Shown here: positions 20,878-22,056 of the stretch, piece after piece
How the letters are laid out: the number at the start of each line of letters is the position of its first letter
Position numbering within the stretch: position 1 is the first letter of the stretch
Assembly (NCBI GenBank): GCA_009773355.1
Contig: WRPG01000001.1
Span: 270,529-334,528 of the forward strand
Direction: 5' to 3'
Length of the DNA stretch: 64,000 nucleotides
Source: Limisphaerales bacterium
Lineage (GTDB): Bacteria; Verrucomicrobiota; Verrucomicrobiia; Limisphaerales; SXTU01
Notes under the pieces: generated by a model
What the model saw: the letters and a program-made list of their open reading frames with translations, nothing else
Told to the model about the DNA's origin: nothing
Databases searched by the model: none
Translations under genes and position numbers: made by a program

Positions 20878-22056
20878 ATGAATTTTGCCATTCAGCACAG
20901 CGCCCTGCGCGACCTCCACGACAAGGTCGTCGCCGGGGAGCGCCTTTCCGACGCCGATGCCCTGCGCCTCTTCGAGAGCAAGGACATCAACGCCGTCGGG
21001 GCCATCGCGGACTTCGCGCGGCAGCGGAAGGTGGGCAACCGCGCCAGCTACATCCTCAACCGCTACATCAACTACTCGAACTACTGCATCCTCTCCTGCC
21101 AGTTCTGCTCCTTCGCCCGCAAGAAGCGCGACGCCGACGGCTTCGAGCTGACCATCGAGCAGATGGTGCAGAAGGCCCGTGAGGCGCTCGCGCTGGGCAT
21201 CACGGAGCTGCACATCGTCGGCGGGCTGCACCCCTCGCTGCCGTTCAGCTACTACGTGGACATGCTGAAGGCGTTGAGCGCGCTCAATTCTGAAATCGGC
21301 AATCGGCAATCGGCAATCGGCAATGGCCAACGCCTGCAGCTCAAATGCTTCACCGCGATTGAAGTCCTCCACCTCGCCTGGCTGGCGAAGAAATCCGTCG
21401 AGCAGACGCTCATCGAACTCAAAACCGCCGGCCTCGACTCGCTCACCGGCGGTGGCGCGGAAATCTTCCGCAAGGAAGTCCGCAGCGCCATTGCCAAGGG
21501 CAAGGAGAGCGCCGAGGAATACCTCGACGTCCACCGCACCTGGCACCGCCTCGGCGGCCGCAGCACCTGCACGATGCTCTTCGGCCACGTCGAGAAGCTG
21601 GAGGACCGCGTGCATCACCTGAGCCTGCTGCGCGCATTGCAGGACGAGACACATGGCTTCACCGGGTTCGTGCCGCTGCCGTATCAGCCGGAGAACAACG
21701 ACATCCCCGTGCGCGTGCCGCCCACGGGCTTCGACCAACTCCGCACCATCGCCGTGAGCCGCCTCTACCTCGATAACTTCGACCACATCACTGCCTATTG
21801 GGTGGGCATGGGCCTCAAGCTCGCGCAGGTGGCCCTCAGCTACGGCGCGGACGACTTGCACGGCACCATCGTCGAGGAGCACATCTTCCACATGGCCGGC
21901 GCGAAGTCTCCGCAGCTCCAGACCGAGGCGGAGATGGTGAAGGCGATCCGAGAAGCGGGGAGAATACCGGTGCAGCGGGACACTTTTTATGAGGCGGTGA
22001 AGGTGTGGTCTTCAGATTCCAAGAGCGAGACGGACAGGATGGCAGTCAAGGCTTGA
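20878..22056 (+). CDS. mqnE: Radical-SAM menaquinone (futalosine pathway) enzyme, MqnE/MqnC family; aminofutalosine synthase favoured
   Basis: CxxxCxxC motif (NYCILSCQFCSF). ELHIVGGLHP. CFTAIEV. It is adjacent to mqnA. The choice of MqnE over MqnC rests on motif memory only. Confidence 0.8.
   Translation: MNFAIQHSALRDLHDKVVAGERLSDADALRLFESKDINAVGAIADFARQRKVGNRASYILNRYINYSNYCILSCQFCSFARKKRDADGFELTIEQMVQKAREALALGITELHIVGGLHPSLPFSYYVDMLKALSALNSEIGNRQSAIGNGQRLQLKCFTAIEVLHLAWLAKKSVEQTLIELKTAGLDSLTGGGAEIFRKEVRSAIAKGKESAEEYLDVHRTWHRLGGRSTCTMLFGHVEKLEDRVHHLSLLRALQDETHGFTGFVPLPYQPENNDIPVRVPPTGFDQLRTIAVSRLYLDNFDHITAYWVGMGLKLAQVALSYGADDLHGTIVEEHIFHMAGAKSPQLQTEAEMVKAIREAGRIPVQRDTFYEAVKVWSSDSKSETDRMAVKA
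21286..21328 (+). repeat. Heptanucleotide tandem repeat (AATCGGC)x4 plus degenerate flanking copies, inside the mqnE CDS
   Basis: Four perfect copies at 21294-21321, then AATGGCC at 21322-21328. Translated as NSEIGNRQSAIGNGQ. Confidence 0.95.

Follow-up and report, generated by a model that had tools for sequence, protein, structure and literature searches.

Short tandem arrays of varied 7-nucleotide (nt) units, short in extent, mostly non-coding and spread through a whole lineage, are known in cyanobacteria as short tandemly repeated repetitive (STRR) sequences. The subject of this study is an array of the unit AATCGGC that lies in frame inside mqnE, the gene for the radical S-adenosylmethionine (SAM) enzyme aminofutalosine synthase, in a 64,000-nt stretch of DNA (hereafter 'the window') from a Limisphaerales bacterium of the phylum Verrucomicrobiota (contig WRPG01000001.1, positions 270,529 to 334,528, forward strand). 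The clade to which this bacterium belongs resembles the cyanobacteria in its varied non-coding 7-nt arrays, but the phylum and the units are different, and some of the arrays here are spacers of repetitive extragenic palindromic (REP) dimers. In another verrucomicrobium, Opitutus terrae, GTAG REP dimers are found within genes, where they encode 20-30 amino acids (Di Nocera et al. 2013, PMC3733652). To the extent covered by the available parts of that account, the inserts that relatives of the window carry at the same mqnE site are similar, being tagged with GTAG or GTGG...CTAC, dispersed, in frame, about 20-50 amino acids long, and often grouped or nested, whereas the window insert has neither palindromic arms nor a GTAG tag and thus does not itself classify as a REP dimer; those same parts make no mention of one enzyme site being reused across dozens of species, nor of spacers made of 7-nt arrays.

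The Rickettsia palindromic elements (RPEs) are also comparable, since they are small repeats that are translated as extra segments in seemingly functional proteins, presumably at permissive places (PMC10969869). However, RPEs are distributed over many unrelated genes of a reduced intracellular genome, while here a single site in a single gene has received many families, in a free-living, GC-rich verrucomicrobial lineage. A precedent for slippage in a coding heptanucleotide is the AAGACTC tract of neuO in Escherichia coli K1, which ranges from 3 to 53 units, with 20 being the commonest, and is out of frame in 65.6% of 64 genomes (PMC13001214). As in neuO, a coding unit of 7 nt means that the full-length protein is obtained only at copy-number changes divisible by 3; unlike in neuO, where the tract is located 5' in an accessory, phage-borne gene, only 4.4 units are present here, midway along a housekeeping gene, and the lineage of the window yielded no out-of-frame allele. 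In-frame REP and RPE insertions, as well as coding microsatellites, are already known; what appears to be new is the repeated colonization of one codon-scale site in a conserved enzyme across an order, the existence of REP dimers with heptamer-array spacers, and the dominance of period 7 among the arrays of this clade.

The reading that we favor, to which we assign a probability of roughly 0.62 on the strength of the sequence comparisons described below, is that the array would derive from a repeat and extend a loop of a functional MqnE, probably with a near-neutral effect, and not be a regulatory switch. The features of the gene on which this reading is based are as follows.

20878 to 22056, plus strand: mqnE, aminofutalosine synthase, radical SAM, 392 amino acids (TIGR03700, Pfam, PDB 6xi9).
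21085 to 21108, plus strand: CILSCQFC, codons C70-C77, the CxxxCxxC motif for the [4Fe-4S] cluster, intact (translation).
21274 to 21287, no strand assigned: 14-nt perfect palindrome TTGAGCGCGCTCAA, host codons L-S-A-L-N, directly beside the insert (sequence).
21289 to 21330, plus strand: inserted codons S138-Q151 (SEIGNRQSAIGNGQ), net gain of 13 amino acids (alignments of 120 proteins and 178 loci; gap in 6xi9).
21294 to 21324, plus strand: 4.4 perfect copies of AATCGGC, followed by a degenerate AATGGCC to 21328 (Tandem Repeats Finder, pattern search, simulation).

The product of MqnE is a precursor of the respiratory quinone, and the identity of the host gene was established by several independent means. 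The whole protein scored 444.9 bits with TIGR03700, the MqnE equivalog model, which exceeds the curated cut-off of 434.55, and remained under the cut-offs of the MqnC and CofH models. Pfam recognized a Radical_SAM (PF04055) and a CofH_C (PF19288) domain, and the PDB match was 6xi9, an aminodeoxyfutalosine synthase (E value 3e-70). A protein from a Limisphaerales metagenome-assembled genome (MAG) was 100% identical to the window MqnE (P0001; database proteins and loci are designated by P and L numbers, respectively, where they need to be told apart). The three cysteines C70, C74 and C77 were invariant among the 34 relatives compared.

An earlier note on this DNA, made from its letters without database searches, had described four perfect AATCGGC copies and a fifth that matches at 5 of 7 positions, in frame in mqnE, and this description was fully reproduced. 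Tandem Repeats Finder reported 4.4 copies at 21294-21324 with 100% matches, and the pattern search found three overlapping perfect dimers of AATCGGC and the 5/7 copy AATGGCC at 21322-21328. When written in codons, 21292-21330 reads GAA ATC GGC AAT CGG CAA TCG GCA ATC GGC AAT GGC CAA, and in the mqnE frame the array is translated as ...ALNSEIGNRQSAIGNGQRLQLKCFTAIEV.... At a lag of 7 the array gave 24 consecutive self-matches, which is the longest short-period perfect repeat of the window; by comparison, 200 sequences simulated with a first-order Markov model had longest runs of 8.6 on average and of 13 at most. Among the 179 sequences examined, the AATCGGC array was confined to mqnE.

Comparison with relatives then established that S138-Q151 is an insertion in MqnE. 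The loci compared comprised 80 from species representatives of GTDB, 80 from metagenomes, and 18 from an exact-protein look-up; the closest relatives (above 92%) came from the exact-protein look-ups rather than from the metagenome scan. In the alignment with 6xi9, a 13-residue gap faces SEIGNRQSAIGNG exactly. Of the 120 homologues that matched best in the database (77-100% identity), many read ...LKALKALDP-RLQLKCFTAIE, with nothing inserted, and the S138-Q151 segment stands where such empty alleles have a single residue (P, A or S). Overall, 150 distinct sequences were distinguished at the site, of which 68 were empty (...ALD-x-RLQLKCFTAIE) and 82 occupied; among the 80 GTDB species representatives, the corresponding numbers were 44 and 36. 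The gap in 6xi9 and the 68 empty alleles out of 150 thus agree with the suggestion of the earlier note that some 12-14 residues had been inserted here.

In the relatives, the same position holds a large variety of other inserts. They range from 6 to 52 amino acids and fall into at least 12 unrelated sequence families, examples of which are GTAGGGCG, GTAGGGACG, GTAGGGCCGCG, GTAGCAGCCGACGTGAGGAGGCTC, GTAGCCGCCGAGG and GGGAGCGCCGGCATC, and further GTGGCACGGGCGTCTCGCC, TGTAGCACCCGCG, CGGAGTGCGGCCGTCC, GGGGAGCGC and GGTGGGGCGAG. Nearly all of them are long, near-perfect hairpins at the DNA level, for which RNAfold calculated -45 to -104 kcal/mol per segment, and many have the termini GTAG...CTAC or GTGG...CCAC. 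These inserts correspond to GTAG-tagged REP dimers as described in the literature. Some are composite or nested (L030, L035, L036), and in L087 two families lie next to each other. The same families were also found at about 25 places outside mqnE, in about 0.85 Mb of flanking DNA from many species (2-7 kb per genome), and one such copy is present in the window itself:

4948 to 5024, no strand assigned: intergenic hairpin of a REP dimer, arms of 26 nt with 100% complementarity, GGTGGGGCGAG tag, GGTGGGGCGAGCGTCCTCGCGAGCCG... (hairpin and family comparison).

This hairpin is located in a divergent intergenic region, and it shares its family with the mqnE inserts of L019, L030 and L098. Since copies occur outside mqnE, including the one at 4948-5024, the insert families are regarded as dispersed, mobile-type repeats.

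Elsewhere in MqnE, inserts were found at three positions only, in five sequences in all, and because of this scarcity the mqnE site is considered a strong hot spot. Two of the rare positions are after LQDETH (around residue 259; L061, L065, L137 and L146) and after PQLQ (around residue 348; L132), where the inserts are other hairpin-type peptides of 11-46 amino acids. Turnover of the occupants at the main site is fast: among the nearest relatives, at a third-position divergence of 0.17-0.22 from the window, four different states were encountered, namely a fourfold array (L166), an array of 1.4 copies (L161), an A-type hairpin (L001) and an empty site (L009). A neighbor-joining tree of the core protein, which diverges by 20% or less, does not resolve gains and losses; since the core protein is too conserved for events to be counted, the number of unrelated families was used as a lower bound.

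One of the families, designated A-type, provides a plausible source of the window array. The A-type REP dimers, with arms GTAGCAGCCGACGTGAGGAGGCTC, carry tandem arrays of 7-nt units as their loops, inside mqnE as well as elsewhere:

CAAACTC: loop unit in L001, at the mqnE site.
CAACCCT: loop unit in L022 and L050, at the mqnE site.
GGAACTC: loop unit in L111, at the mqnE site.
GGAACSC: loop unit in L084, at the mqnE site.
CGTTCCG / AGTTTCG: loop units in L008 and L087, outside mqnE.

In L114, the loop sequence of L022 and L050 is present while both arms are gone, from which it follows that loss of the arms leaves an insert made of heptamers only. The left junction of the window insert (GCGCTCAAT followed by TCTGAAATCGG) contains the motif AAYTCNGARNTCGG, which also occurs in L001 and, in an identical reading frame, where the loops of L111 and L132 begin; if an L111-like allele lost the DNA between two of its AAT triplets, this junction would result. 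Because of the arm loss in L114 and the occurrence of AAYTCNGARNTCGG in both the window and the loops, a relic REP-dimer spacer is favored as the origin of the array.

The course of events that best accommodates these data would then be the following. One codon-scale position of mqnE, from ...ALD/N to RLQLKCFTAIE, has, by the alleles compared, been colonized repeatedly by GTAG- or GTGG-tagged, REPIN-like REP dimers in Limisphaerales-type Verrucomicrobiota, and it is the in-frame, stop-free inserts that are seen to persist, the out-of-frame contig L178 belonging to another lineage. The A-type family, as its alleles show, brings a 7-nt array as its loop and can leave a heptamer-only insert by losing both arms. 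The AATCGGC array of the window would be such a relic A-type spacer, a free-standing array being less likely, and would be translated as a loop extension rich in Gly, Asn, Ser and Gln. Slippage would act on the array and selection on the needed enzyme would remove changes of 1-2 units, whereas changes of 3 units and other in-frame changes would persist, as the surviving variants in part document.

Several observations weigh against this explanation. First of all, no A-type arm was found anywhere in the 64-kb window, and most free-standing heptamer arrays of the clade also lack hairpin arms; that the array comes from a REP spacer is thus inferred from L114 and the 14-nt motif rather than demonstrated. 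Secondly, no conserved hairpin or motif that could explain targeting was found at the empty sites, where the folds were weak (-4 to -14 kcal/mol); insertion beside or into existing elements would be the simplest account of targeting, because nested and adjacent cases do occur. Thirdly, the structural placement of the insert rests on a poor model, together with general knowledge of the radical-SAM fold. AlphaFold2, run with a 34-sequence alignment, gave a mean predicted local distance difference test (pLDDT) score of 54, which is usable only for the local secondary structure at the site; locally it showed a helix at 123-143 (blocks of 86-87), scores below 50 at 145-147, and a strand at 154-156. 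In radical-SAM barrels, helix-to-strand loops are located on the face opposite to the cluster and the SAM site. The insert would thereby lengthen a helix-to-strand loop on the barrel face opposite the Fe-S/SAM site, a location that would suit the tolerance of such varied inserts. Lastly, the DNA of the array has changed less than neutrality would predict. Over six lineages with four units each, with a third-position tree length of 0.84-1.08 substitutions per site, the ten third positions of the array showed 2 changes against 8-11 expected (Poisson P 0.01-0.001). Such conservation could come from homogenization by slippage, from gene conversion, or from selection at the nucleotide level; because the sites are few and the peptide served as the criterion for choosing the lineages, the result is taken as a lead only.

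The first of these observations bears on the alternative that survives best, namely that the array arose in situ, or as a free-standing array of the intergenic type, unrelated to REP-dimer spacers. The prevalence of armless arrays and the absence of A-type arms from the window keep this origin in contention, and the flanking codons AAT TCT GAA ATC do resemble decayed units. Nonetheless, L114 shows the loss of arms directly, the left-junction motif is common, in the same frame, to the loops of L111 and L132, and most of what else occupies the site consists of hairpins of the REP type; we thus consider an independent origin rather unlikely, although it is the most credible of the competing explanations. 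Recent transfer of the array between lineages was also considered as the cause of its identity and was set aside, since the comparison of flanks and gene gave no clear signal: in the 27 codons flanking the array, compared by eye between the window and L091, there were 6 third-position differences, i.e., about 22%, as against 32% gene-wide.

Somewhat less probable still is that the array, along with the hairpins of other species, is kept for a function at the nucleic-acid level, such as a protein-binding site, or an element in the mRNA by which translation would be paused or modulated just past the Fe-S-binding N-terminal portion, and that the site is actively targeted or selected rather than simply tolerant. 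In its favor, the DNA is conserved beyond what the protein needs, and the array retains the codons AAT, CAA and GCA, which we take to be non-preferred in this GC-rich genome. Occupancy of this one site is very high relative to the density of elements in the flanking DNA, and the same heptamer units (GGTTCAA, AACATCG) recur in different species. There is also the palindrome in the neighboring codons of occupied alleles; palindromes of 12 nt or longer were found in the codons beside the site in 13 of the 82 occupied alleles but in none of the 68 empty ones, a difference confounded by phylogeny, and the one beside the insert reaches 20 nt in L013, L014 and L028. However, with 44 of the 80 species representatives empty, no insert can be required; no sequence relationship unites the inserts, whose length varies from 6 to 52 amino acids; and no common structure exists, since the window array is unfolded (its insert region folded no better than shuffled sequence, z score -0.63) in contrast to the strong hairpins elsewhere. 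A scan of 20500-22300 against Rfam at permissive thresholds returned two chance-level matches only, neither of them at the array, and, as already indicated, the conservation test has few sites and suffers from ascertainment of the lineages by their peptide.

Whether the array changes in copy number was judged from the relatives that share it. One clear copy-number variant was found, L161, which is shorter by exactly 21 nt, i.e., by 3 units, and L162 has an in-frame deletion of 6 nt beside the array. The unit itself has turned over in a concerted manner, with AATCGCC alternating with AATCGGC in L173, AATCGCC in L174, and AATCCGA/AATCCAA in L175 and L145. A different situation was found in L178, a single 2.2-kb contig of another lineage (about 80% identity), where mqnE is frameshifted within an insert of 79 nt that includes two mini 7-nt arrays (L178:1969-2082); removal of one unit restores ...SPRLQLKCFTAIE... 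to the end of the contig, so that this state is what one slip would produce. A search for an in-frame counterpart of L178 found no relative above 78% identity. The idea of the earlier note that the repeat is a mutational hot spot can thus be upheld on an evolutionary time scale only, in the form of the 21-nt loss in L161, the unit turnover in L173-L175 and L145, and the state of L178. The boldest combination of these data would be that the alpha2-strand site is an active landing pad for REP elements in Limisphaerales, that the 7-nt arrays are the spacer module of an undescribed class of REP dimers and owe their nucleotide conservation to a function, and that one-unit slips such as that of L178 switch menaquinone off in subpopulations; taken jointly, we regard this as improbable.

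Frameshifted alleles of the window lineage were also sought directly. A unit of 7 nt is not divisible by 3, and loss of one unit would yield a product of 245 amino acids and gain of one unit a product of 163. The N-terminus of MqnE joined to both of these out-of-frame tails was searched against 5.8 billion proteins, and nothing scored above the normal N-terminal score; no shifted allele of the window lineage was found. All 20 of the 20 sequences with the AATCGGC array type were in frame, seven independent metagenome assemblies of one species were identical at the array, six lineages whose third codon positions diverge by 17-39% all had four units, and the array is interrupted by point substitutions in L166 (TCA) and L163 (ATT). 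The proposal of the earlier note that the array may be a slipped-strand, phase-variable switch, taken here to mean that changes of 1-2 units would reversibly stop menaquinone synthesis in part of the population, is therefore not supported and is the least credible of all, for despite the unit length, the truncated products it predicts, the one-unit offset of L178 and the precedent of neuO, the tract is short (4.4 units), constant in copy number and in frame, lies in the middle of the gene of a housekeeping cofactor enzyme, and must be viewed against a background of errors and pseudogenes, with frameshifted mqnE open reading frames (ORFs) elsewhere in the gene.

The aberrant mqnE ORFs in the database are of two kinds. 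In P0204, P0218, P0240, P0272, P0274 and P0276, the N-terminus of MqnE runs through a hairpin insert into the C-terminus of another gene or into an out-of-frame tail; the C-terminus of P0240 is aminotransferase-like, as read by eye. Such ORFs probably stem from chimeric assembly or from errors at repeats, or possibly from pseudogenes. In P0271, P0277 and P0280, three independent sequences, the frame shifts at one and the same point away from the insert (around residue 205, between ...AKGK and ESAEE...), which hints at another place in mqnE that is prone to indels or errors. Because frameshifted ORFs occur both at the hairpins and elsewhere in mqnE, pseudogenes and assembly artefacts are inseparable from real variants.

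The site offers a clean experiment of nature on the remodeling of an enzyme by selfish repeats, in which dozens of related species carry differing repeat-encoded peptides, or none, in one radical-SAM loop. It also shows selection on the reading frame filtering microsatellite slippage, as only a 3-unit change was found among the array-bearing relatives, and it links two features of verrucomicrobial genomes, namely the GTAG REP dimers and the abundant heptanucleotide arrays. For protein engineering, the site may be useful as a permissive place for insertions, and in metagenomes it could help to mark strains. On the practical side, such repeats yield chimeric and frameshifted gene calls in MAGs.

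The heptanucleotide arrays were also surveyed on their own. The survey covered 844 kb of related DNA, from which the mqnE site was masked out, and required at least 3 copies and at least 85% match; of the 32 short tandem arrays that it gave, 19 had a period of 7, with at least 12 types of unit. Of 23 arrays examined, the one in mqnE was alone in being spanned by an ORF of mqnE-like composition (third-position GC content, GC3, 0.87). Arrays of period 7 thus characterize the clade as a whole and, apart from the one in mqnE, are non-coding, in keeping with the previous description of the mqnE array as a repeat of the intergenic type. Arrays of GGTTCAA were seen in several species, with up to 32.7 copies (L062:1-229, which has the maximum, L073:1886-2044 and L022:2045-2082), and the unit AACATCG recurs in L035, L102 and L116, showing that unit types are common to different species. 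The motif GGA, as bound by CsrA-type proteins, was considered as a feature of the arrays and dropped, since most units lack it.

Within the window, the following other 7-nt arrays were found by Tandem Repeats Finder.

37472 to 37502, no strand assigned: 4.4 copies of GCTGACC/GCCGACC, inside an ORF with GC3 of 0.80.
38629 to 38649, no strand assigned: 3 copies of AATTACT/AATCACT, intergenic, upstream of an ORF that starts at 38661.
42236 to 42312, no strand assigned: intergenic pair of 7-nt arrays in inverted arrangement, GTTTCGA-type and AACYCSA-type.
48885 to 48992, no strand assigned: intergenic 7-nt arrays CCAATGA / CATTGGA, AATCGGT and CATCGGA, an inverted pair.

Such additional arrays had been noticed from the sequence before, and their presence was verified at 37472-37502, 38629-38649, 42236-42304 and 48961-48992. 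The first of them is probably situated just upstream of the true start of a minus-strand gene, taking that start as read by eye, and the ORF at 38661, also read by eye, looks similar to elongation factor Ts. The left array of the pair at 42236-42312 resembles the REP-dimer loop in L008. Intergenic hairpins formed by an array and its reverse complement were seen at 42236-42312, 48885-48992, 60765-60857, 61023-61105 and 10466-10542; they use units of 7, 10, 6 or 8 nt, for example, CACGGATGGA in 2.7 copies and TGTTCATCCG in 3.2 copies.

Finally, the neighborhood of mqnE is not the same throughout the clade. In the relatives L161 and L173, mqnE is found beside UbiX-like, UbiA-family and VitK2_biosynth genes and a second, CofH-like radical-SAM gene, while its neighbors in the window are dxr, an ORF of the UPF0175 family and an ankyrin protein. 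The segment between dxr and mqnE (20122-20785) contains this antitoxin-like UPF0175 ORF and an ORF of 106 amino acids that has no Pfam match; since dxr directly adjoins mqnE in the close relative L166, this pair of ORFs looks recently inserted.

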